From Idiomarina loihiensis L2TR (GTDB lineage: Bacteria > Pseudomonadota > Gammaproteobacteria > Enterobacterales > Alteromonadaceae): 32,000 bases of DNA. The stretch lies in NCBI RefSeq assembly GCF_000008465.1, contig NC_006512.1, positions 1,950,001-1,982,000 on the forward strand, written 5' to 3'. Below, in pieces: positions 1 to 16,520 of this stretch (position 1 is the stretch's first letter; each line of letters begins with the position of its first letter). The position numbers and the translations under genes are program-made. The notes beneath the pieces are model-generated. The model was not told the origin of the DNA. It did no database searches and worked only from the letters and a program-made list of their open reading frames with translations.

Positions 1-87
1 AGTAAATTTGGCTTGTATGTCCGCGCAAGCGTTTGATTCATCTATTTCTGACATTGCGCGCCTCTATTCGTGAAGTCAGTGCTTAGC

Positions 88-309
88 TCAGTTGTTCATT
101 GGCGAGTTCATCGTCCAATTCTTTCGTAAAAGCCCAGTGGTCACCGGTATCAAATGCGACGACCCAGGCTCCCTGTGCGGCGCTATCTTGTAGAGAGCTG
201 TTACGAGTACCAAAACAACAATTACGGTTATAAAGGCTGTCATAATTTCCATATTCAGTTTGTTCCTTTGTCCGGCCTTATCTGTTCCGCTGTTTTGGTT
301 TGTCAGCAT
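88..309 (-). CDS. hypothetical small protein with one predicted transmembrane helix (start uncertain; alternative ATG at 252)
   Basis: 73-codon ORF beginning 5 nt after the hydrolase stop. It has a hydrophobic stretch AFITVIVVLVLVTALY. An AAGGAA-like SD precedes only the internal ATG at 252. No family recognised. Confidence 0.3.
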   Translation of the reverse strand: MLTNQNSGTDKAGQRNKLNMEIMTAFITVIVVLVLVTALYKIAPHREPGSSHLIPVTTGLLRKNWTMNSPMNN

Positions 310-314
310 TTAAA

Positions 315-1736
315 TTAACGATATCTTGTGATGAGCTCATTAATTTTTCTTCTGACAGGCGCTACAGTGTTAGATTGATTAGCTAAAATAACCACGATAA
401 ATCCTTTATCTAAATATATGTCTAAACGCGCATCCACGCCTAAGTATGCGCCACCATGACCAACAATTCGATTATTCGGCTCGCCGCTAACAGAGAAACC
501 ATAACCATACCAAAACGCGGAGTTGTAGTCGGTTTTTTCACTGTATGCTTCTTCAGTAAGCTCCTTGCTAAGTAGCTTATACTCAGTCAATGCTATAGCG
601 AATTTATGTAAGTCCCCCACGGTAGAAAAACCACCGCCCGCTGGGCTGCCCTTAATTGCTCTGGTGTAAATGCTGTTAACCCAGTCATCACTGTAGCTTC
701 GTTTCAAGTAGCCAGTAGCTAAGTTTTGATTTGATGAATCCAACTCGAAGCTACCTGTATTTATCATCCCAGCTTTGTTGTAAATGTTTTCTTGTACGTA
801 GTCATAATAGGACGTACCCGTTACGCTTTCGATAACAAGCCCAAGCATTAGCATTCCTGAGTTACTATATCTATTCTGTGTACCCGGCGAAAATAGCAAT
901 GGAGAGCTGGATACAAGTGGTTTATAGGCAGTTAGATCCCGGTAAGCTTCCTTGTTGCTTTTATTAAATTCGTCGTTAAAAAAGTTTCCAAAGCCTGAAG
1001 TATGCGTTAAGAGGTGACGAACCGTTATTGCTTCGACTTCTCCTTGTGGCAACCAACTGGTGTCTACGAAATCTATCAGTTTGTCTTCAAATTTAAGCTT
1101 GCCTTGTTCAATAAGTTGTAACGCCGCAACTGCTGTAAACATCTTGTTCATTGAACCCAAAGAAAATTTTGTCTCTACTTCATTTTTCACGCGCCACGGT
1201 CTATTCGCATAGCCAACAGCTTCCTGAAATAAGACATCTTTTCCTTCGGCAACTAAAACAACACCTGAAAAAGCTTCGTTTCGGGCTAACTTATCAATAA
1301 AGTTAGTGAGTTTCTGTTTTAGTTCTTGTGCAGTAATGGTTGTTAACTTTTGAGAATCAGATGTAACGTCTTCAAAGGTGAAATAATTGATCTTAAACGG
1401 AGATTTTCTTTCTCTATTTATCATTAAATTGTATTCAAGGTCATTGTTGCTTGAAATTACACGAACGCGCTCATTACCATTTTCCGCGGAAAGGTGCTTC
1501 TGCACCTCAAGTTGCCCAAAGGTATTTTGCTGATTTAGTAAAACGCCAACATGTGCATCAATCCCATACCTTTCAATCTGACTATTTGACATGTTTTTCT
1601 GTAAGTATTTAATAACCTCTGTTCGTGAGCCTTCGTTAAAAACTCCCACAAAGGATTTAGCAAACTTTTCATCGGCAAATGCTAATTTGGAAAAATAGAC
1701 AGGTATTAATAATAGAAGTATGTATTTAGTTCGCAT
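315..1736 (-). CDS. secreted serine hydrolase, beta-lactamase/penicillin-binding-protein fold (class C-like / EstB-like family)
   Basis: 473-aa ORF with an ATG start and AGGA SD. It has an N-terminal signal peptide (MRTKYILLLLIPVYFSKLAFA). The motifs S-x-x-K (SMNK), Y-x-N (YSN) and H-G-G (VGHGGAYLG) appear in canonical order. About 150 aa at the N-terminus have no recognisable family. Confidence 0.8.
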   Translation of the reverse strand: MRTKYILLLLIPVYFSKLAFADEKFAKSFVGVFNEGSRTEVIKYLQKNMSNSQIERYGIDAHVGVLLNQQNTFGQLEVQKHLSAENGNERVRVISSNNDLEYNLMINRERKSPFKINYFTFEDVTSDSQKLTTITAQELKQKLTNFIDKLARNEAFSGVVLVAEGKDVLFQEAVGYANRPWRVKNEVETKFSLGSMNKMFTAVAALQLIEQGKLKFEDKLIDFVDTSWLPQGEVEAITVRHLLTHTSGFGNFFNDEFNKSNKEAYRDLTAYKPLVSSSPLLFSPGTQNRYSNSGMLMLGLVIESVTGTSYYDYVQENIYNKAGMINTGSFELDSSNQNLATGYLKRSYSDDWVNSIYTRAIKGSPAGGGFSTVGDLHKFAIALTEYKLLSKELTEEAYSEKTDYNSAFWYGYGFSVSGEPNNRIVGHGGAYLGVDARLDIYLDKGFIVVILANQSNTVAPVRRKINELITRYR

Positions 1737-1857
1737 TTATTTGTCCTAACGTATTAGAATGTTGGACTTAATTTGTTCAGAAAACTCGCTTAAGTCGATG
1801 AAGAAATTGATATTTTTTTGCGATTTTTTTGTGATTGACGAAAACTAAGGACTGTAA

Positions 1858-3855
1858 ATGTCAGATTTTTCAATAGAAAGCTTAGGTAAGACACCTTTCT
1901 TTCTTGACGAGTTTTTAGTCGACGCTCAGCGCAATACCCTATCGGTTAACGACTCAGTACAAACCGTTGAACCAAAAGTTATGCAGGTGTTGTTAGTTCT
2001 CGCTGCGAATAATGGCAATGTGGTTAGTCAGGAAGCCTTGTATGCTGAAGTCTGGCCAAACTCAGTTTTTAGTCCGGGCTCAATCAGAAGAGTCATTACG
2101 ATTCTGCGTAAAGTATTGAGTAAAGACAACCAGGAATTAATAAAGACCTTTCCTAAAAAGGGCTATAGCCTCAATGCAAAAATTAGATTAGAAAACCATA
2201 CCAAAACAAGCTTCAAGAAAAGAGCTTGTTGGGCGTTATCAATTATTCCTATCATCGTTTTGTTGTTTGCTTTTACCGTCACCACCGAGACAGACTCAAC
2301 TTTTACTGTCCACGAGGCAACTCCTATTACCTCGACCGAGGCACTTGAGTTCAATGCCAAGATCTCACCTGATGGCGCAATGGTAGCTTTTTTACGAATA
2401 GCTGAAACTGGAGAGGGAAACAGAGCTCTCTGGGTAAAAGACATAGCAACAGACGAAGAACAACTCATAGTTGATGGCAATGTATTGGAGTTTGACTGGT
2501 CGACAGAAGCTGATGCCCTGGCGTTTACAATCTTTTCCAATAAAAGTGAGCAAATTCAGACTGTCAATTTGAATACTTTAAATATCTACAATTCAATCGC
2601 CTCTTTTGTGAATGAAAAGAGAATTAGTTCTATGCATTGGGGCCGCGACAACAATATTTACACTTTAACCAAAGAGAATGGTCTGGTCAGCTTGATGGCC
2701 ATTAACCTTAACTCTGGCAAGAAATCAAAGATAAAAGATTTTGATGAGACATTCGTGCCGTATGAGATTAATTTTCACAAAGTACAAAACAAGCTTGCGC
2801 TCGCCGGTTTTGACCAGGATGGCGTAAGTAAGATTTTTTCATTGTCGTTAAGTAGCGACGTAGAAGCATTGTCAGAAATTATTGCCTTAAATAAAAATAG
2901 ATACTTTTTAGCCTGGCACCCAAATGGGGAGGCAATGGTAATAAGTGATGGTCGTTTACTTAGTAAGGTTTGGATGGATGGTAGCTCGTCCAGAATTAAC
3001 TACGACAGCTATGACTTCGTTCAGCATCCACAGTTTACGCCAAGTGGCGACCAGATACTTTTTAGTCTGGCTAAGATTGATACTGACATTGAACAAATGT
3101 CATTAACTAGTAACGACCAAGTCACGAAGTTAGTTAATTCAAATACTGTCGACAGGGAGCCCTCGCTGTCGCCTGATAAGTCGAAATTGGCCTTTATTTC
3201 CCAGCGAAAAGGCTTTCCTCAAGTATATGTTTTAGATTTAAACACCCAGGAAATTCAGCTAGTTTATGAGAATAAAGAACGCTTACTGGGTGTCTCCAGA
3301 CCCGTCTGGAATGCCAATAACAACCGTTTAGGTTTTTCAAACTATGACTTCCCTATTATTATTTCTGCCGAAAACGATAAGTACTCAGTGAAACAACTAA
3401 CAGCTCCCCATGGAGTCTTAGTCGATTTCTATCCGAACAACGAAAAAGTCTTAACCTTAGCTCGTAAATCGAATCAGTTGTCGACCATAGACTTAGCTAC
3501 TGAAAAAACGCTAAATCAACGTACGCTTAATGCAAGTAACGCTATAGTCGACGCCGATGGCCAAGTCTGTTTTGTTCAAGCCAATAAATTACAATGTTTT
3601 CAAAATGACACTGAATTCGAGGTGTTAGATCTTCAAGGACACGTTTTAAGTTGGGTTAAAATTGGCACCGAGCTACTGTTCACGCTTCAAGCTGACGAAG
3701 GAAACTCTCTCGTGGTTGTAGATTTAAAGTCTAAGTCTATTAAGGCGGAGTACGGAATACCGGGATTTGTCACTAAAGTGACAGCGATAAAAGACGGTAA
3801 AATTATTTATGAATCTCAAAACAAACAAAAAGATATTGTACTGCTAAAAAGCTGA
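1858..3855 (+). CDS. membrane-anchored ToxR/CadC-like transcriptional regulator: N-terminal OmpR/PhoB-type winged helix, one TM helix, periplasmic TolB-like (PD40) beta-propeller
   Basis: 665-aa ORF with an ATG start and AAGGA SD. It has a wHTH signature (EPKVMQVLLVLAANNGNVVSQEALYAEVWP ... IRRVITILRKVL ... KKGYSL) and a TM segment (ACWALSIIPIIVLLFAFTV). PD40-type repeats are repeated along the rest (ISPDGAMVAFL, FTPSGDQILFS, LSPDKSKLAFISQRKGFPQVYVLDL). Confidence 0.75.
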   Translation: MSDFSIESLGKTPFFLDEFLVDAQRNTLSVNDSVQTVEPKVMQVLLVLAANNGNVVSQEALYAEVWPNSVFSPGSIRRVITILRKVLSKDNQELIKTFPKKGYSLNAKIRLENHTKTSFKKRACWALSIIPIIVLLFAFTVTTETDSTFTVHEATPITSTEALEFNAKISPDGAMVAFLRIAETGEGNRALWVKDIATDEEQLIVDGNVLEFDWSTEADALAFTIFSNKSEQIQTVNLNTLNIYNSIASFVNEKRISSMHWGRDNNIYTLTKENGLVSLMAINLNSGKKSKIKDFDETFVPYEINFHKVQNKLALAGFDQDGVSKIFSLSLSSDVEALSEIIALNKNRYFLAWHPNGEAMVISDGRLLSKVWMDGSSSRINYDSYDFVQHPQFTPSGDQILFSLAKIDTDIEQMSLTSNDQVTKLVNSNTVDREPSLSPDKSKLAFISQRKGFPQVYVLDLNTQEIQLVYENKERLLGVSRPVWNANNNRLGFSNYDFPIIISAENDKYSVKQLTAPHGVLVDFYPNNEKVLTLARKSNQLSTIDLATEKTLNQRTLNASNAIVDADGQVCFVQANKLQCFQNDTEFEVLDLQGHVLSWVKIGTELLFTLQADEGNSLVVVDLKSKSIKAEYGIPGFVTKVTAIKDGKIIYESQNKQKDIVLLKS

Positions 3856-4249
3856 TGGTCGGGAACGTGAAAGCTAGCAAAACTAGGCCGTGAACTTGGC
3901 AATATCTTATGTAGATTAACAAAACAACAATACCCATCTTCACTTACAACCCTAAAGGCCTGTTCAATTGTGTTTACCTGACTTTCCCGCTCGTAGCTAT
4001 GCTAATTTGAATCACTCGACATTATCTTGGAGATCAACCCTGACAGACTCAGTAACGTGACTCGGATCGAACTTGACCGTAGATATTGAAGAATAGATTT
4101 TGCTCGATCTCACTACTCTCTCCTCCTCGAAGCGATCGCCACATTGCTCTTCCCGCTTAACGCCTTAATAACCGGCACGCGTTTTTTTGTGAATCAGGTG
4201 CCGATAGGCAAGTAGTTAATTGACTTGTTACATTCTATTTTCAAAATAT

Positions 4250-5077
4250 TCACTCTTTGACCGGATAGCTTACTATGCACTGTTGATCGGCAAGCAAGTA
4301 AAAGCTGTTCCCAGTTAACTCGATAAATGGAAAGTCAACAAATTTTGCATTATGCATAGATAAGCTTAAATGCATTTTTCTATCTGTTAACTTCAATCTT
4401 CTCGCGTGGGCGGGATAAGTACCTTTGCCTTTTTGTGTTACTAAGAAAGCGACAGGAAAAAAAGATAGCAAGCTTAGAATAGTCATGTTCCCCTCATTGT
4501 GAAAACCAACCATTTTTGCACTTAAGTGTTTTTTGTGAGGATAAAACCAATAGTATATGTCGTGAGTATTTTCTATAGCATCATTTTCGCCTAAGACAAA
4601 CTCTTGTAAGGGCTTAAAATATGGTGCGTCCACAGGTTCTGTCCGGCACTCACTTACAGATGTTGCAGCTAAAATATGACCGATCATAGCTCTAGCATAT
4701 CTTATGGCATCAATATCTAAACTTAGCATTGTAGGAGTCACGAGAGGGCCTTCAAAATGAGCCCTTATTAACACTGTTAACTCCTTATGCACGCGTGATA
4801 TTTCAGAATCGTTTTTACCAAGTATTTCATTGTTGCATGCGCTACATATAGTTTTAAAAATGCTACCATTTTTAGCCTTTACACCCTTTAAGCTGTTTGA
4901 TTCATCCCCCATTAACTCGGTAATGTGTTTTTGCTCAACTTTTGTGATTTGAATCGATCCTTGAGGCGGAACGTGATCTTTAGAAAGTGCTCCAAACTTC
5001 CCACAAATCAAGCAATATCCTTCCTTGATACGAGTATGTTGGATTCTCTTAGAAATCTCTCTTGAATATTGTCCCAT
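4250..5077 (-). CDS. orphan HNH/EndoVII-like (beta-beta-alpha-Me zinc finger) nuclease-domain protein with an uncharacterised ~185-aa C-terminal domain
   Basis: 275-aa ORF with an ATG start. The N-terminal motif is CLIC-x9-DHVPPQ-x38-CSACNNEILG: two CxxC pairs bracket a DH general-base dipeptide, and the CxxCN resembles T4 endonuclease VII and McrA-type HNH. No motif was recognised in the C-terminal part. The gene is AT-rich. The ORF itself is convincing; the nuclease assignment is motif-level only. Confidence 0.55.
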   Translation of the reverse strand: MGQYSREISKRIQHTRIKEGYCLICGKFGALSKDHVPPQGSIQITKVEQKHITELMGDESNSLKGVKAKNGSIFKTICSACNNEILGKNDSEISRVHKELTVLIRAHFEGPLVTPTMLSLDIDAIRYARAMIGHILAATSVSECRTEPVDAPYFKPLQEFVLGENDAIENTHDIYYWFYPHKKHLSAKMVGFHNEGNMTILSLLSFFPVAFLVTQKGKGTYPAHARRLKLTDRKMHLSLSMHNAKFVDFPFIELTGNSFYLLADQQCIVSYPVKE

Positions 5078-5326
5078 TAAATTGCTCGATGTTTAATTTG
5101 AAATGTAACGTTTGTGCACTGCACATGCACACTTTCTAACCCATTAAAAAAATCAAAAGTACCTCTTTCCTTTTTAATAAGGCGTTCGTTTCTATCAAAA
5201 TTATTCCACTATAAGCTAAAATAAAATGTGCATGCTCATTTAGCCATTTTAAAGTGCGCAATATCAGTCTTTACAATTTACGTATGTAATTGACACTAAA
5301 CGGGTTAAAAATGAAAAGCAAGCAAC

Positions 5327-5364
5327 AAAAAAGCCTGACAACTCAAAAAGAGTTATCAGGCTTT
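5327..5364 (-). terminator. rho-independent terminator downstream of fadR (structure is bidirectional)
   Basis: AAAAAAGCCTGAcAACTCaaaaaGAGTTaTCAGGCTTT forms a ~12-bp interrupted stem. On the minus strand the stem is followed by TTTTTTGTTG, and the hairpin lies ~55 nt after the fadR stop. Confidence 0.75.
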
Positions 5365-5417
5365 ATAATCAAAAAACTAAATTTAATTCTATCGAGAAAA
5401 GCGGGAAACTAGCTTAA

Positions 5418-6128
5418 TTAACCCACCAAATCATCCGGCATATCGCCACGCAGGCTATGCCAAATTTCGGCGGACTCGTAACCGTAACGACGAACCAGGT
5501 TAACGGACTCGTTGTAGTCGCCTTCGCGGGTTACGGCTATTAGGTTTTCATAGTAGTCGCGGGCCAGTTGGCGGGCTTCTGACGACGAAAAGTAATACTG
5601 CCCAATACGCGAGTACAGGCCTTTAAAGCCGTTCAGTACCAGCACATAAATGGGGTTGCCGGAGGCCATGGCTAAGTCGTGGTTCAACTGGTAGTCGAAC
5701 TCGGCAAAGGTTTTTTTGTTGTCTTCCAGCTCGCTGGTGGGTTCCAGTAGCTCCAGAACTCGCTTTGGGTTATGGCGAATGGCGGCACGAATATAAATGG
5801 CGCTAATATTGGTGCGTGCAGACAATAGCTGGTCGACTAGCTCCGGCATGCCGTCTTCGTCCAGGCGCGCCAGGGTTTCTAGAATATTAAGACCAGAGGT
5901 TTCCCAAAAGTTGTTCACTTTGGTGGGTTTGCCGTGCTGAATGGTCAGCCAGCCGTCGCGCGCCAGACGCTGCAGCACTTCGCGAAGGGTGGTTCGCGTT
6001 ACCCCAATGAGTTCAGACAGTTCTCGTTCAGCGGGTAGAATAGTGCCCGGTGCAAAATGCCCGTTCCAGATAGATTTTACGATGTACTCCTCGGCAAAAC
6101 CCGCCGGACTTTTAGCTTTTATTATCAT
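5418..6128 (-). CDS. fadR: fatty acid metabolism transcriptional regulator FadR (GntR family)
   Basis: 236 aa, near-collinear with E. coli FadR as I recall it ([16 protein letters not shown]..., [59 protein letters not shown]). Confidence 0.95.
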
Positions 6129-6271
6129 ATTCCCGCCTGTGAACTAACTAATAAAAGGATTCTAGCAGCCTTGTGTGAGGTCGGACAAGATAACTTCCGG
6201 CTTTATATCGACAACACCACGCTATTTGGGTATGGTTTCTACGTTTTTACAGTTTCTTAAGGAAAATCATC

Positions 6272-6817
6272 ATGCTGTCTGTGGGTCAGTGGCCTAACAA
6301 ACCTTTTGCCTGGTTACTGTTATTTCTAGGGTGTTCAGGCCTGTTGGGCGCCGCGCTTTACTTCCAGATGGTTCTTAACTTAGAGCCCTGCGTAAAGTGT
6401 GTTTATCAACGTATGGCGGTTATCGGTATTGGCTTGTCTGCTATTGTCGGCCTGTTTGGTTCCGGGCTTTGGTTAACGCGCTGGGCGGCTTTAATTGGCT
6501 GGCTTTACAGCAGTTATCAAGGTTTATTAATTGCCTACGATCACTGGGATCTTCAAACCTCGAAAAACGCGTTCTTTGCGGTGTGTGAAAGTGCGCCTAA
6601 TTTCCCTGACTGGGCACCAATGCACGAATGGATGCCGGGGCTTTTTGCGGCACCGGGGTTATGCGGTGACATTGACTGGCAATGGCTGGGGTTAGGTATG
6701 CCGGGCTGGATGACGGTGATTTTTGCGGGCTTATTGCTCATTGGTATTATTGTGACTATTTGCCATATTATTTCGTCGTTCACGAAAAAAGACGGGTTGG
6801 TGCTTTACCACAAATAA
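6272..6817 (+). CDS. dsbB: disulfide bond formation protein B
   Basis: 181 aa with four hydrophobic segments. It has the CxxC pair (CVKCVYQR) in the first periplasmic loop and a second Cys pair (CESAP...CGD). SD is AAGGAA. It sits beside fadR, as in enterics. Confidence 0.9.
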   Translation: MLSVGQWPNKPFAWLLLFLGCSGLLGAALYFQMVLNLEPCVKCVYQRMAVIGIGLSAIVGLFGSGLWLTRWAALIGWLYSSYQGLLIAYDHWDLQTSKNAFFAVCESAPNFPDWAPMHEWMPGLFAAPGLCGDIDWQWLGLGMPGWMTVIFAGLLLIGIIVTICHIISSFTKKDGLVLYHK

Positions 6818-6835
6818 TCCGTTTTAATGCCAGGG

Positions 6836-7267
6836 CTAAGACAAGGGCCAGGTCACTATACGGTCTTCCAGGTCGCCCTTGAACTTCGCCTCACTTACGC
6901 AATGGCCGGCTACATGATAGCCGGCTTTTTTCATTGGCTCTTTACTGCCCTCATGCCTTAACGGATGCCATTGCGGCAAAGGCTGTCCTTCTGCCCGCAA
7001 CCGATAAGCGCAGCTAGCGGGCATAAAGTAAACCTCGTCGAGGTTGTCAGGGGTTAAGGTTACACAAGCGGGTACACGCTCACTGCGGTGAGCGTAGTCG
7101 CTGCAGCTGGCCGTCTTGGTATCTAACAACCGGCAGGCAACGTCGGTAGAATACAGGTTATCTTCTTCGTCCAGTAGCTGGTTTAAACAGCACTGCCCAC
7201 AGCCATCGCACAAGGCTTCCCATTGTGCGTGACTCAGTGTGTGCAGCGGCTGTTCATACCATTTCAT
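6836..7267 (-). CDS. ycgN: YcgN-family cysteine-cluster protein (UPF0260)
   Basis: The ORF was trimmed to the ATG at 7267 (MKWYEQPL...). It has the hallmark EALCDGCGQCCL cluster and the CAYR motif, and aligns with E. coli YcgN from that Met. The tracked 190-aa ORF upstream of that Met overlaps mltB and has no homology. Confidence 0.85.
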   Translation of the reverse strand: MKWYEQPLHTLSHAQWEALCDGCGQCCLNQLLDEEDNLYSTDVACRLLDTKTASCSDYAHRSERVPACVTLTPDNLDEVYFMPASCAYRLRAEGQPLPQWHPLRHEGSKEPMKKAGYHVAGHCVSEAKFKGDLEDRIVTWPLS

Positions 7268-7283
7268 CAGTACCGACAAGGCA

Positions 7284-8321
7284 TTACCTTGGAAAACGAA
7301 TGCGGTCGGACAAATAGCCCACGGCGGCCACAAAATAGTGCGAACGGTTCCAGCGCATGAGCGCGTCGTAGTTAGCGTAAGCCAGGTAAACGCGGCCTTC
7401 TTTGTCATCCGGAATCACTATTGATGCATCGATATCGCCGCGCGATGGCAACTCAGAGCCGTCAAAGCGTGTAACGCCTAAGTCAGCCCACTCGCCCAGC
7501 TTTTTCTTAGTGTCCAGCCCGGCTAATGACTCATCAAAACCTTCAGGCAGTTGTACCTGACGTCCCCAGGTTACGTCGTCTTTCCAGCCAACCGAGCTCA
7601 GGTAGTTAGCGGCTGACGCAAATACGTCCGGGTAGCTGCCCCAAATGTCTTTTTTACCGTCACCGTCGTAGTCCACGGCGTAACTCATGAAAGAGCTTGG
7701 CATAAACTGAGTTTGCCCCATAGCGCCTGCCCATGAACCCTTCATTTGCTCCGGTTCAATGTGGCCGTCTTCAATAATGGTTAAGGCTTCCCAAAGCTGC
7801 TTTTTGAAAAACTCTTCGCGACGTCCGTCAAAAGCCAGCGTAGTTAGTGCCGATACCACATCAAAGCCACCAGTGAACGAACCAAAGTTGGTTTCAATGC
7901 CCCACAGCGCGACAATAAAGCGCGGCTGCACGCCGTACTCTTTGCCCACTTTTTCCAGCAGCTCTTTATGTTCGTTGTATTTTTCTAACGCTTTTTCGGC
8001 TTTCCAATCCGGTACTGCGCGTGGCAGGTAGGTATCCAGAGTTAATTTAAATTCCGGCTGGTTTTTATCCAGCTCTACCGCCCGTTCGTAATACTTTACT
8101 TTGGCGAAGGCTTTATCCAGAGTGTCTTGCTTATAGCCGCTTTCAATGGCTTCGGCTTTCAGAGCTTCAACGTAGGTGGCAAACTGTTGGTTCACATCTT
8201 CGCTGGACTCTTTTTTAGCCTTGTCGTCAGTTTCCTGAAACGCAGAAGCCGGCGCGCTAAGCGCAAATGAAGAAGCCAGACAAAGAGCCAGCCCTGCCAC
8301 TTTTATTTTATTTGTTAACAT
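7284..8321 (-). CDS. mltB: lytic murein transglycosylase (MltB/Slt35-like), secreted
   Basis: Start chosen at the ATG at 8321 (MLTNKIKVAGLALCLASSFALSAPASA signal peptide). It carries family-typical segments ALWGIETNFG, GAMGQTQFMPSSF, DYDGDGKKDIW and NYLAYANYDALMRWNRS. The last residue before Cys is Leu, so a lipobox is doubtful. Confidence 0.85.
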   Translation of the reverse strand: MLTNKIKVAGLALCLASSFALSAPASAFQETDDKAKKESSEDVNQQFATYVEALKAEAIESGYKQDTLDKAFAKVKYYERAVELDKNQPEFKLTLDTYLPRAVPDWKAEKALEKYNEHKELLEKVGKEYGVQPRFIVALWGIETNFGSFTGGFDVVSALTTLAFDGRREEFFKKQLWEALTIIEDGHIEPEQMKGSWAGAMGQTQFMPSSFMSYAVDYDGDGKKDIWGSYPDVFASAANYLSSVGWKDDVTWGRQVQLPEGFDESLAGLDTKKKLGEWADLGVTRFDGSELPSRGDIDASIVIPDDKEGRVYLAYANYDALMRWNRSHYFVAAVGYLSDRIRFPR

Positions 8322-8568
8322 TGACTTGAAGTTCCTCTCGTTTCGGTGGTAACTGCAAATAGAAACCATCGTTATGCAAATGCTGTTGTAACTTTTCGAC
8401 CGTTAAACGCGCCAACTGTTCACGGTTGGCCAGGTTAATTGTCAGCACTTTTTCGGCGCGACCAAACTGGCCCAACAAAACATCGGGCACGTCGGTAAAT
8501 TCGTTACCATGAGGCAGGTAAAGATAGGTATCGGCTTTTTTCGAGCTGCGATAAACATCACACAGCAT
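8308..8568 (-). CDS. ycgL: YcgL domain-containing protein (UPF0745)
   Basis: 86 aa with a strong AGGAG SD. The segments CDVYRSSKKADTYLYL ... GFYLQLPP match E. coli YcgL as I recall it. Confidence 0.85.
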   Translation of the reverse strand: MLCDVYRSSKKADTYLYLPHGNEFTDVPDVLLGQFGRAEKVLTINLANREQLARLTVEKLQQHLHNDGFYLQLPPKREELQVNVNK

Positions 8569-8588
8569 GGCAGTTCTCCTGAATGGGG

Positions 8589-9761
8589 CTACTTGCTAAT
8601 TATAGCCTGTAATTCTGCCCCAATTGCGTGCTGACGCCAACCCACCATTAAGTCAGGTTGCGGCAAACGCTGCTGTTGTTGCGTTGAGTATTGCCAATGA
8701 AAGTTAATAAAATCATTAATTTGCTTGCGTGACGCCACCAGTGACGCCGGTATGTGTAAAGATTCAGCCAGTTCCGTAACGGCCTTTTTAATGGCCTTAA
8801 AAGTTGGCTTGTAGCCTTCCATATCGTCCAGACGTTCCAACGTTTGCGGAAATTCAGACTCGGGCACTTGTTCGGCTTGCTGAATACAGCGAATAATATC
8901 GCGCCCCGAATACTTGCGTGACATGGGGGCTAAATCTGGAATGCGGCTTAGCTCGTCGTCATTTTTTGGCATTCTTCGGGCTAGCTCAAGCAAGACCCCG
9001 TCCTTGGCAATAAAGCCCAGCGGAATGTCGCGCTCGCGCGCTTTGTGTAAACGCCAGGGCGTCAGAATTTTAAGTGCAGCCAGTTGCCGCGGGTTCAGCT
9101 GCCAGGCATTGCCTACGCCCAAATAGAGCAGATCATCCGGCCAGCTTTGTGTGCGTTTACGCACCTGAATTTGCGACTCTTCGTACACAATATCCAGCAC
9201 ACCTTTTTCTTCACACAAAGCTTTAAGATACGGGTACATTATCGCCAGATAACTGGCATCGGCGGCAGCATAGTCTAACTGTTCATCGCTTAACGGACGC
9301 TTAAGCCAGTTGGTACGTGACAAGCTTTTGTCCAGCTCAACGCCGTCAAATAAGGCATCGACTAAACGTGCGTAGCCCATTGAGTCACCCAGGCCACAAA
9401 AACCGGCGGCTATCTGGCTATCAAAAATTTGTTTGGGTTGGCGGCCGCTGCTTTGCTGAAAAAACAGTTCAATATCTTCGCCACCGGCATGCAATACGGT
9501 TTCGACTTCATCGCCGGAAATCAGCTGCCATAAAGGCTCTAAATCAATATCCGCCAACGGGTCAATAACAGCCGTTGTGCCGTTAGCGTGAATTTGTAAT
9601 AAGCCTAACTGAGCGTAATAAGTGCGTTCACGCACAAACTCAGAGTCAATAGCGAACCAACCGCATTTTACGGCCTGCTGGCAGAGATCTTGTAAATCAT
9701 CAGTGGTGGTAACGAGCCGGTATTGTTGTACCGACTCGGGTAATTCTAACGGCAGAGTCAA
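8589..9761 (-). CDS. rnd: ribonuclease D
   Basis: 390 aa with the DEDD exonuclease domain ([41 protein letters not shown]) and an HRDC region. The only in-frame start is the TTG at 9761, with a GAGGA SD 6 nt upstream. It lies downstream of fadD, as in E. coli. Confidence 0.9.
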
Positions 9762-11428
9762 GCTTCATCCTCTTCATCGCGTAATTCACGGCGAATTATT
9801 TTGCCGACGTTGGATTTAGGCAATTCATCACGAAACTCAACCAGTTTAGGTACTTTGTAACCGGTCAGGTTTTCGCGCGAAAAGTCGATAACTTCACGTT
9901 CGGTCAGTGATTTATCTTTTGCCACAATGAAGACTTTTACCGCTTCACCAGACGATTCGTGCGGCACGCCTATGGCTGCCGACTCAAGAATTTTAGGATG
10001 GTCAGCTAGTACGTCTTCAATTTCGTTCGGATAAACATTAAAACCCGACACCAAAATCATGTCCTTTTTACGATCCACAATTTTGAAGTAACCACGCTCA
10101 TCAACAGTGGCCATGTCACCCGTTGCAAACCAACCGTCTTTAATTGATTCTGCTGTCGCATCAGGACGGTTAAGGTAACCCACCATAACTTGCGGGCCTT
10201 TCACTTCCAGCTCGCCCGGTTCACCTAAAGCCACTTCTTCGCGCGTTTCAGGGTCAACAATACGCATGTCGGTACTTGGTACCGGCAAACCAATGCTGCC
10301 CGTGTAATGTTCAATATCGTAAGGGTTAACGGTAACCACCGGAGAACACTCGGTTAAACCATAACCTTCCAGCAAACGAGACTTGGTTACCCGCTCCCAC
10401 TCGTCGGCCACTGCACGCTGGACCGCCATGCCGCCGCCCAGAGCAATTTTTAAATTCGAGAAATTGACGTCTTTAAAGCCCTTGGTATTCAACAGGCCAT
10501 TAAACAGCGTGTTAACCCCTGAAATCATTGAGAAAGGATACTTATTCAGCTCTTTCACAAAGTTCGGCATGTCGCGCGGGTTGGTAATTAAGACGTTCTT
10601 GCCACCGTGCTTTATAAAGGTAAGGCAGTTCGCGGTTAACGCAAAGATATGATAAAGCGGCAGCGCGGTAATAATGGTTTCTTCGCCATCATTCATTATG
10701 GGCGTAATAACCGAGGAAACTTGTTCAAGGTTAGCAACCATATTACGGTGCGACAGCATAGCGCCTTTTGCCACCCCCGTTGTTCCGCCGGTGTACTGTA
10801 AAAAGGCAATATCATCACCGGTCACTTCAGGACGTTTATAGTCGGCCATGGTTCCTTTGGCCAGCGCTTGATTAAAACTCACCGTGCCTTTTAAATTATG
10901 CGAAGGCACCATACGTTTTATATACTTAACCACAAAGTTAACCAAAGAGCGCTTAAGTAAAGGCAACTGGTCACCTATTTGCGTGGTAACAACTAAATCG
11001 AGCGGAGCTTCTGCTTTGATTTTTTCATAGGTTTGAGCAAAGTTTTCCAGAATAACCAGAGCTTTTGCCTGAGAATCTACCAGCTGATGCTTTAACTCGC
11101 GCGGCGTGTAAAGTGGGTTGACGTTCACTACAGTCATGCCTGCTCGCAGAATACCGAATAACGCCACAGGATATTGCAGCAAGTTTGGCATCATAACCGC
11201 AACGGCATCGCCTTTTTTAAGGCCGGTACTGTGCAGGTAAGCGGCAAAGTCGCGAGTTTTCAGACCCAGTTCTTTGAAACTCATTTCTGAGTCCATATTT
11301 ACGAAAGCCGTTTTCTCGCCGTACTTTTCAATGGACTGCTCAAGTATATCAACCAACGACGCAAAGTGATCCGGGTCAATTGTTTCCGGTACTCCCGCTG
11401 GGTAGTTTTCCAACCAAATTTTATCCAT
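9758..11428 (-). CDS. fadD: long-chain-fatty-acid--CoA ligase
   Basis: 556 aa with the AMP-binding signature ([18 protein letters not shown]), plus GYGLTE and TGDMA...[13 protein letters not shown] is GGAG. Confidence 0.95.
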
Positions 11429-15968: not shown

Positions 15969-16017
15969 AACCTATACCGCCGAAGAAATAGGCACGTATT
16001 ATGACATAGATGTTTGC

Positions 16018-16290
16018 CTAGGCGTAGGTGTCTATATGTCCTGAAGATAAGGTTTCATCGTTATCAGCAACCTCTTCAACGTCCGTTTGAGCCGACGATT
16101 GTTGATGCTGATGCTGTTGGCTACTTTCTCTTTTTTGATCATCTTCGATGGTAGCCCCTTCGTCTTCATCTACAGCGTTGAGTTCGCGTATCTTCTCAAT
16201 CTGGTTTATTTTCATCTGCTCACGGGCGAAGTCCACAGGCACGCGAGTGTCTTTGGGGATCAACGGAACCATTGCATCAAAGTTAGCCAT
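16018..16290 (-). CDS. hypothetical acidic small protein
   Basis: 90-codon ORF with an ATG start, divergent from the his promoter. It is highly acidic and Gln/His-rich. No family was recognised. Confidence 0.45.
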   Translation of the reverse strand: MANFDAMVPLIPKDTRVPVDFAREQMKINQIEKIRELNAVDEDEGATIEDDQKRESSQQHQHQQSSAQTDVEEVADNDETLSSGHIDTYA

Positions 16291-16330
16291 TGTTGTTGTC
16301 TTTCGCCTCGCAGAGAATGAATTCTGTTAT

Positions 16331-16344
16331 TTGACTATACAACC
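16331..16344 (+). repeat. copy 1 of exact 14-nt direct repeat TTGACTATACAACC
   Basis: Identical to 16568-16581. A 9-nt core, CTATACAAC, also occurs at 16424-16432. Confidence 0.9.
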
Positions 16345-16394
16345 ACTGGTTAAATAATAAGCTTATATCGACTAAATAACCAATAAGTTTACTC

Positions 16395-16422
16395 TTGCAT
16401 TACATTTCTCAGCTGTTATAGT
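16395..16422 (+). promoter_or_regulatory. candidate sigma-70 promoter of the his operon
   Basis: TTGCAT (16395-16400), a 16-nt spacer, then TATAGT (16417-16422). This lies ~45 nt upstream of the hisL ATG. Confidence 0.45.
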
Positions 16423-16469
16423 GCTATACAACTTTACGAAGTAAAACTATTTTTATTGGAGTGTTAATT

Positions 16470-16520
16470 ATGCGTTTTGTTCACAGCCACCACCATCATC
16501 ATTGGAACTGTATGGCCTAG
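16470..16520 (+). CDS. hisL: his operon leader peptide
   Basis: ATG CGT TTT GTT CAC AGC CAC CAC CAT CAT CAT TGG AAC TGT ATG GCC TAG encodes MRFVHSHHHHHWNCMA. Six of seven consecutive codons are His. GGAG SD lies 8 nt upstream, and the peptide sits immediately upstream of the attenuator and hisG. Confidence 0.85.
   Translation: MRFVHSHHHHHWNCMA

Follow-up and report, generated by a model that had tools for sequence, protein, structure and literature searches.

We analysed a stretch of 32,000 nucleotides from the genome of Idiomarina loihiensis L2TR (contig NC_006512.1, positions 1,950,001 to 1,982,000 of the forward strand; hereafter the window, whose numbering is used throughout) and focused on a gene on its minus strand at 4250..5077. 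We hypothesize, with a probability that we put at about 0.6, that this gene encodes a self-contained, zinc-stabilised HNH DNA endonuclease, which is carried as mobile single-gene cargo and protects its carrier against phages and foreign DNA. The open reading frame (ORF) and the motifs that had been quoted in a preliminary description of the sequence (C22-L-I-C25, D34-H35-V-P-P-Q and C78-S-A-C81-N82-N-E-I-L-G87) were borne out by inspection of the raw sequence.

A predicted HNH core in an elaborated protein

The features of the gene that are relevant for its assignment are as follows.

4250..5077, minus strand: complete ORF of the HNH-type nuclease gene, 275 amino acids, ATG start
4784..5038, minus strand: predicted zinc-finger HNH (His-Me finger) core, residues 14-98, delimited by Pfam alignments, relatives and predicted secondary structure
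5003..5014, minus strand: first zinc knuckle, C22-L-I-C25
4973..4978, minus strand: D34-H35 pair closing strand 1, predicted to act as metal ligand and general base (raw GTGATC)
4832..4846, minus strand: C78-S-A-C81-N82, second zinc knuckle and predicted metal-binding Asn in the first helix turn
4250..4741, minus strand: beta-rich body, residues 113-275 plus the stop codon, predicted to pack against the HNH core

The gene is intact, functional and under purifying selection, as the ratio of non-synonymous to synonymous substitution rates indicates (dN/dS 0.07-0.13, window gene compared with strain variants and with an 88%-identical relative). Positions 1-9000 of the window are 100% identical to I. 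loihiensis CP005964.1, and the identical I. loihiensis protein (P0001, 100% identity) is labelled ‘metal-binding protein’ at NCBI.

Conservation was assessed in 130 diverse relatives with 22-49% identity to the window protein. Residues H35, C78, C81, N82, D90, H134, W177 and P208 are invariant in all 130, and C22 and C25 (each in 129), D34 (in 126), P37, P38, G71 and G133 are present in at least 126. In these alignments the putative catalytic residues D34-H35 and N82 and the predicted Cys4 zinc site are invariant or nearly so, a degree of motif conservation that is far beyond chance. The elements follow each other in the order first CxxC knuckle, strand 28-33 ending in D34-H35, 40-residue insert, strand 75-78 and start of helix 79-109; the insert between the Asp-His (DH) pair and the second knuckle is found in every member, with a length of 33-60 residues (median 42).

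The AlphaFold model of the window protein is a single compact body with a predicted local distance difference test score (pLDDT) of 87 and a predicted template modelling score (pTM) of 0.88. D34-H35 directly follow strand 28-33 in two AlphaFold models, and C78xxC81-N82 are located at a strand-helix junction, with N82 in the first turn of helix 79-109, which follows strand 75-78. The modelled layout is that of a zinc-stabilised beta-beta-alpha-metal site. As in the HNH_5 and Endonuclease_7 families, two CxxC knuckles bracket a DH at a strand end and a CxxCN at a strand-helix junction.

The curated profiles detect this resemblance mainly in the relatives. In the window protein, HNH_5 (PF14279) aligns with residues 75-95 (E 0.043; 14.2 bits against a cut-off of 27.5) and Endonuclease_7 (PF02945) with residues 14-98 (E 0.19; 12.1 bits against a cut-off of 23.6); there is no Pfam match above the curated cut-off, and none to NCBIfam or PADLOC 2.0 models. 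When the 130 relatives were scanned singly, HNH_5 was matched by 52 at E <= 0.01 (best 1.9e-6), Endonuclease_7 by three, and the Septu PtuB model by three distant ones (best E 5.4e-5). Curated-profile support for the HNH assignment of the window protein is therefore transitive only, via its relatives. The earlier classification as HNH/EndoVII-like holds for HNH, indirectly, through the relatives and the predicted topology, whereas affiliation to the EndoVII family remains below threshold. Taken together, sequence logic and topology provide good support for membership of the HNH (His-Me finger) nucleases, short of a proof at the level of the three-dimensional structure.

Structure comparisons gave no statistical confirmation of the fold. 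With the full model, the best Foldseek match in the PDB has an E-value of 0.11, and the sole significant match in BFVD is an uncharacterised myovirus protein (E 2.4e-4). With the N-terminal domain as query against approximately 350,000 PDB chains, T4 endonuclease VII (EndoVII; 1e7l_A) ranked second with a non-significant E-value of 1.3 (TMq 0.29), and the Gme HNH nicking enzyme (4h9d_B) ranked 26th, also non-significantly. Nothing meaningful came up when PDB sequences were searched with the protein itself or with profiles of the family and the superfamily. Structure prediction and fold searches, which had been proposed as a check, yielded a confident model with a beta-beta-alpha-metal layout, but the Foldseek comparison with the PDB was non-significant.

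These results bear on the alternative that the protein is a catalytically inactive zinc-binding protein, for instance a DNA-binding regulator built on an HNH-like scaffold. Such a protein would fit the ‘metal-binding protein’ label, and it is in line with the non-committal database names and the lack of a significant structural match to an active nuclease. However, not only the cysteines but also D34, H35 and N82 are invariant or nearly so down to 22% identity, and because such invariance of catalytic residues is unexpected for a degenerate scaffold, we consider this the least probable of the alternatives that we weighed.

The part of the protein outside the core (residues 113-275) is mostly beta-strand in the model and packs with the long helix into one globule. 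It contains G133-H134, W177 and P208, and H134, W177 and P208 make up three of the eight residues that are invariant in the superfamily. The preliminary description had treated the last ~185 residues as a separate domain; the single compact model (pTM 0.88), in which this part carries H134, W177 and P208, speaks against such a division. Foldseek recognised no fold in residues 113-275 in comparison with the PDB, and the longer relatives do not contain an additional Pfam domain. We read the body as an elaboration built into the nuclease, and not as a sensor domain that could be separated from it; it probably serves in recognition of DNA or another target. Conservation is lowest in the last ~60 residues, and the alignment with distant relatives ends at approximately residue 216. 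Such a variable C-terminal tail would suit an element that determines specificity and an element that binds a trigger equally well.

A widespread family of mobile single genes

The gene had been called an orphan that could not be placed in any family, and neither statement can be maintained. The protein matches phrog_21495 (PHROGs v4, function unknown) over nearly its full length (residues 7-273 against profile positions 3-267 of 269; E 1.6e-84), and is a member of that family, although membership names the protein without explaining it. A word-indexed search found 205 relatives, and an exhaustive profile search of 1.84 billion representatives found 858 cluster representatives at E <= 1e-3 and 524 at E <= 1e-10, so that the superfamily, clustered at 50% identity, comprises ~860 clusters. 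Nearly all members have 255-300 residues, which indicates a fixed architecture of ~270 residues.

Close relatives occur in the Gammaproteobacteria, in Vibrio, Aeromonas, Pseudoalteromonas, Pseudomonas, Rheinheimera, Marinomonas and Gilliamella, and also in Providencia, Serratia, Erwinia, Photorhabdus, Escherichia, Klebsiella and Proteus. Distant members are found in Cyanobacteria, Planctomycetota, Bacteroidota, Chloroflexota, Actinomycetota and Thermoanaerobaculia. In E. coli the gene is accessory (141 of 5,426 complete genomes), and one variant is present on at least 1,000 contigs; V. cholerae members are found on only tens of contigs. Many records of the enterobacterial homologue WP_000161640.1 and its variants (CP042872.1, CP123602.1, NZ_CP025913.1) are labelled ‘chaperonin’, a name without sequence support that seems to have been propagated from UniProt A0A0L7ACS6. 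The searched literature contained no mention of WP_000161640 or phrog_21495, and the family gene was not found in the DefensePredictor supplements.

The preliminary description had pointed out that no gene for a methyltransferase or an ATPase and no antitoxin-sized gene adjoins the HNH gene, which we confirmed in the window and, for conserved partners, in a survey of 48 species-representative loci with three ORFs on each side. Among the 264 products of flanking ORFs, 214 are singletons, and even the largest cluster unites only four, without a consistent position. Small flanking ORFs (20-120 residues) are not conserved beyond near-identical enterobacterial copies. The hypothesis of a partner gene (a Septu-like ATPase, a methylase or an antitoxin) was rejected, since no neighbour is conserved in the 48 loci. 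It is strongly supported that the HNH gene stands alone.

A lone nuclease without a methylase could be toxic, and integron arrays and plasmids, where relatives reside, are rich in toxin-antitoxin modules. On these grounds the protein might act as a toxin within a toxin-antitoxin or competition system that has escaped recognition, its antitoxin or immunity factor having been overlooked or being encoded at another site. Against this explanation, no neighbour of any size is conserved, Rfam finds no RNA in the flanks, and an adjacent small antitoxin gene, as expected for a type II system, was not seen. Moreover, neither a secretion or delivery domain nor any extra Pfam domain is present, longer relatives included, and the gene persists alone in very different hosts. 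We regard a hidden antitoxin as very improbable.

The gene has a lower G+C content than its flanks in all 54 loci compared, with a mean difference of -10 percentage points that reaches -25 points in Aeromonas, Billgrantia and Kushneria. The family gene is thus foreign and accessory, and it is horizontally mobile, as shown by the variety of elements on which it is found.

In P2-like prophages (phage pro147, and a chromosomal prophage of E. coli EC9), the homologue is found alone and inverted between the genes for tail sheath FI and fibre assembly G, an arrangement seen in at least five of 49 viral contigs. The FI-G slot is occupied in P2 by the phage-exclusion gene Z/Fun, and the ‘Z-region’ of P2-like phages is known to harbour genes gained by horizontal transfer (PMC3091744; PMC13586616). 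Among the species-representative loci, P2 tail genes are near the homologue only in Providencia. One P2-like viral contig (L117, 6795-10608) contains ~3.8 kb of extra DNA between the homologue and gene G, so that its Z-region carries additional cargo. Lambdoid prophages carry the homologue as a moron, in inverted orientation, with the replication module on one side and the hokD/nin genes on the other; this context was found in 14 of the 49 viral contigs. In V. cyclitrophicus CP065206.1 (L005, 1930-10822) an integrated prophage of the filamentous, Inovirus-like type, with Phage_GPA, coat protein, Zot and secretin genes, has the homologue at its end; a DUF2726 protein precedes the homologue and a 362-residue protein of unknown function follows, which suggests that inoviruses also carry the family gene as cargo.

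In other hosts the gene is a single-gene integron cassette. The V. mimicus cassette ORF (L018, 608-1450) is bordered by attC repeats that end at ~594 and span 1447-1575, and the Plesiomonas shigelloides ORF (L003, 10001-10813) by attC repeats at 9866-9993 and 10818-10945. The status of cassette applies to these two relatives, not to the window copy. Plasmids account for 60 records, mostly from E. coli, Shigella and Klebsiella; 44 are conjugative, IncF plasmids are included, and the plasmid copies often adjoin IS26 and an integrase gene. Five resolvases, four phage integrases and several transposases are found near homologues as well. The recurrent positions, namely the P2 Z-region and the lambdoid junction, are general cargo slots.

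This mode of spread allows two further explanations to be weighed. The first is a selfish nuclease, akin to a homing endonuclease or an addiction gene, that spreads itself or retains its carrier DNA without anti-phage benefit. HNH enzymes are a classic class of homing endonucleases, the gene is found in phages, its composition is always foreign, and every locus is different. However, homing would require recurrent insertion at a conserved target, and the 48 loci represent 48 different contexts with no conserved insertion target or flanking gene. Movement appears passive, by attC cassettes, blocks with IS26 or integrase, and prophage moron slots inverted relative to late operons. Strong purifying selection and an architecture that stays fixed in dozens of genera from several phyla also argue against it, and we consider a purely selfish nuclease improbable.

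The second explanation is an element-serving, EndoVII-like junction resolvase or other DNA-processing enzyme with a role in replication, recombination or packaging of the prophage or plasmid. The weak Endonuclease_7 match, the position of T4 EndoVII as the best-ranked nuclease in the fold search with the N-terminal domain, and the location near the nin recombination region of lambdoid prophages are in its favour. However, the lambdoid prophages with the homologue already encode the resolvase RusA, the gene is oriented opposite to the phage genes on either side, and only a minority of such phages carry it, given its presence in 141 of 5,426 E. coli genomes. It also occurs in chromosomal hotspots and integron cassettes without phage or plasmid replication genes. 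Finally, the spacing between DH and CxxC is 33-60 residues, against 17 in EndoVII, and the hhalign probability is 1.8%. A resolvase of this kind is, in our view, clearly improbable.

Several homologues have known defence genes as neighbours. Within three genes we found Septu PtuA (1.9e-115), Gabija GajA and GajB (1.5e-187 and 4.9e-154), an OLD/GajA-like ATPase, a CBASS cyclase with a two-transmembrane (2TM) effector, bSEFIR, PDC-M18A/B, AbiD, DrmC and a DRT-type protein. The integron array of Plesiomonas also holds HEPN_AbiU2, Fic and Shedu (SduA_C) genes, and in P. eucalypticola the homologue is part of a nuclease/helicase islet. As counted without a matched background control, the family is enriched on mobile elements, in variable hotspots and near known defence systems.

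A strain-variable block downstream of fadR

In the window the HNH gene is part of a block with the following features and boundaries.

~110 to 5219-5278: low-G+C, strain-variable block of ~5.1 kb at a hotspot downstream of fadR, holding three genes
315-1736, minus strand: beta-lactamase-family hydrolase (secreted, serine), in the same low-G+C block
1858-3855, plus strand: CadC/ToxR-like regulator, membrane-anchored, with a TolB/PD40 beta-propeller, 665 amino acids, in the same low-G+C block
5078..5278, minus strand: non-coding DNA upstream of the HNH gene, part of the variable block as defined by strain homology breakpoints, presumed promoter site
5330..5364, minus strand: intrinsic terminator of fadR, a 15-bp stem followed by a T-run; conserved core-genome boundary, outside the element

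The immediate neighbours are fadR and the CadC-like regulator gene, which is divergently paired with the gene for the beta-lactamase-family hydrolase. Two earlier observations on the setting were confirmed: a strong terminator separates the HNH gene from fadR (5364-5330, minus strand), and the non-coding flanks are long (394 bp at 3856-4249 and 340 bp at 5078-5417). The description of the surroundings as AT-rich needs extension: the G+C content of the HNH gene is indeed 0.379, against 0.486 in the flanks, but the low-G+C region extends for ~5.1 kb over two further genes. A scan of the upstream region for promoters gave no strong sigma-70 consensus.

We compared I. loihiensis loci that encode a FadR identical to that of the window. 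The window and five other loci (L082-L086) contain the HNH gene, the CadC-like regulator gene and the hydrolase gene after fadR. In L079 nothing follows the fadR terminator. L080 (9037-12590) has a 441-residue protein of no known family, a 582-residue Peptidase_C14 (caspase-like) protein and a 100-residue ORF at this position, a cargo that looks like another candidate defence system. In L081, fadR is followed by genes for a 355-residue protein, a Bro-N protein, a group II intron reverse transcriptase and RelB, and by insertion sequence (IS) elements. In the strains without the gene, homology resumes at window position 5219 (L080) or 5278 (L079), and on the other side near 1-110. Because strains with the same FadR carry nothing or other cargo, and homology resumes beyond the block, the HNH gene is located in a swap-in block at a strain-variable hotspot. 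In strains L008 and L009 an IS element splits the CadC-like regulator gene. I. loihiensis was not among the 63 loci returned from species-representative genomes.

An imperfect inverted repeat brackets the ORF at 4227-4247 and 5089-5109 (21 nt, 71% complementary, at distances of 2 and 11 bp); in the orientation of the gene it reads GTTACAT...ATGTAAC, reminiscent of cassette core sites. The idea that the window copy is the remnant of a cassette was rejected, as the downstream DNA folds unlike attC (z = -0.42). Because of this lack of attC-like folding we treat the repeat as probably due to chance. Rfam detected no RNA family in the flanks of the gene in the window; the only match, L20_leader at 5321-5421 on the minus strand (21 bits against a gathering threshold of 58.7, E 0.39), was judged to be a chance match on the fadR terminator hairpin.

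Two observations stand beside this locus. The closest relative outside Idiomarina (88% identity; metagenome contig L087) has a 284-residue PF01844 HNH gene (346-1200) directly upstream, a single instance of a tandem of two different HNH genes in the same orientation with a 92-bp gap; the upstream protein has no PADLOC match. A second dip in G+C content is present in the window at 16001-16500 (0.406 against ~0.50).

Possible mechanisms and comparison with known systems

The support for a role in defence is circumstantial and consists of the P2 Z/fun slot, the lambdoid moron position, the cassettes, the plasmids, the hotspot and the neighbouring defence systems. The proposal of a candidate single-gene defence function in the preliminary description is upheld to that extent, by mobile and defence-type contexts, but no match to a known defence family accompanies them.

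Several points weigh against a defensive nuclease. The Pfam HNH matches of the window protein itself are all below threshold, and neither the whole chain nor the N-terminal domain has a significant match to a solved structure in the PDB with Foldseek. Alignment with T4 EndoVII by hhalign, using what we take to be its sequence, covered the first CxxC knuckle only (16 columns, probability 1.8%). PADLOC 2.0, which had also been suggested as a check, contains no defence model that matches the protein. Residence as a moron or in a cassette would also fit accessory functions other than defence. The neighbourhoods of homologues, proposed as a further check, do include mobile and defence contexts, with known systems within three genes, but in many loci the neighbouring genes are ordinary metabolic ones, and only ~8-10 of the 48 loci have a strong known defence gene at a distance of up to three genes, a count made without a matched background. 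No fold of a modified-base reader was recognised, so a Type IV-like function is without positive support: for SRA, EVE, YTH, McrA-N, DUF262 and similar readers there is neither a Pfam, NCBIfam or PADLOC match outside the HNH core nor a fold match.

If the gene does encode a defensive nuclease, the protein would be expressed from its own promoter, in keeping with its inversion relative to phage operons and its insulation from fadR by a terminator in the window, and it would cleave DNA and so protect its carrier, be it a prophage, a plasmid or the host, against phages and plasmids that enter the cell. Self-DNA would be spared by a built-in property of the protein; because neither a methylase nor an antitoxin accompanies the gene, self-protection would have to be intrinsic.

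As to how this might be achieved, we tentatively prefer a direct, restriction-like attack on the DNA of the invader, which we hold to be possible, though short of probable. The body outside the HNH core, which supplies the invariant H134 and W177 beside it, would act as an integrated DNA-recognition module and read a feature that is absent from host DNA, either a phage-type base modification (Type IV-like) or a structure of injected or replicating DNA. An autoinhibited nuclease is another defence mechanism to consider, in which a phage trigger would release indiscriminate DNA degradation and cause abortive infection; we think this unlikely. Going further, we speculate that the family constitutes an unnamed, broad-host-range, single-protein immune nuclease, in which the HNH core and the beta-rich body form a new, built-in discriminator of self and non-self. 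Such a discriminator would need no methylase, ATPase or antitoxin, and would be small enough to circulate in cassettes and morons from Vibrio to Pseudomonas to E. coli. As a whole, this wider proposal is doubtful.

A defensive function would add a compact (~270 residues), partner-free nuclease to the defence repertoire, and would raise the mechanistic question of how a lone HNH enzyme spares host DNA. The family is already present on plasmids and in prophages of clinical E. coli, Shigella and Klebsiella and in integrons of marine Vibrio, and a role in defence would affect the host range of therapeutic phages and the traffic of plasmids. Being small and autonomous, the protein lends itself to testing and could find use as a tool. 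The names under which family members are now annotated (‘chaperonin’, ‘metal-binding protein’, ‘hypothetical’) either say little or are incorrect. Specialists would hardly be surprised by a role in defence, yet the family is widespread, clinically present and unnamed.

By sequence logic, the zinc-finger HNH nucleases of the HNH_5 and EndoVII types are closest among known systems; the closest analogues in function are McrA, Septu PtuB, which depends on PtuA, and Sirona and Nemetona. The EndoVII knuckle ‘GKCLIC’ resembles ‘GYCLIC’ in the window protein, and EndoVII has 17 residues between DH and CxxC. EndoVII is a phage-essential junction resolvase, whereas the present family is accessory cargo, and compared with HNH_5 and EndoVII proteins it has an additional insert of 33-60 residues and a body of ~165 residues with its own invariant residues. 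The sub-threshold PF02945 match, the hhalign probability of 1.8% and the DH-to-CxxC spacing of 33-60 residues place it outside the T4 EndoVII family.

With Septu PtuB the family shares the use of an HNH protein, there as an effector in phage defence. In contrast to Septu, the window protein has no PADLOC match and no conserved ATPase partner: PtuA adjoins the homologue in only one of the 48 loci (L036), where it is directly followed by a separate 241-residue ORF that could be the PtuB belonging to that PtuA.

The Type IV idea derives from a functional analogy with E. coli McrA, a stand-alone Type IV HNH nuclease of ~277 residues that is carried by prophage e14 and has no methyltransferase. The nucleases of the window family are likewise stand-alone, prophage-carried and methylase-free, and a nuclease without a cognate methyltransferase is what we observed in the window and the 48 loci. 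McrA has an N-terminal domain that binds 5-methylcytosine and a C-terminal HNH domain; the order is reversed in the window protein, and no similarity in sequence or fold was detected between the two.

Sirona and Nemetona are single-gene, HNH-like defence systems in integron cassettes of V. cholerae N16961, for which a likeness to NinG and to a domain of type II restriction enzymes has been described, and Sirona is spread over 34 genera of Pseudomonadota (bioRxiv 10.1101/2024.07.02.601686). They resemble the present family in being single genes in integron cassettes with a distant His-Me/HNH likeness; the resemblance to HNH_5 belongs to the window family, and the distinction is based on descriptions rather than sequences. 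Close identity was rejected, as the pandemic V. cholerae lineage (N16961) lacks the family, and because V. cholerae family members are found on only tens of contigs, we do not consider Sirona and Nemetona close relatives.

The likeness to P2 Z/Fun lies in the genome position, with homologues occupying the exact FI-G slot as a single inverted moron. The products of the prophage-borne exclusion genes Z/Fun, Old and Tin of P2 are not annotated as HNH proteins in the sources, and only position and lifestyle are shared. The DefensePredictor candidate ‘HNH1’ (WP_252151320.1, 301 residues), compared by accession and name, differs from the present protein in both. Defence by single-protein nucleases is already known; what differs here, with no detectable relation to the named systems, is an uncharacterised, elaborated HNH architecture.

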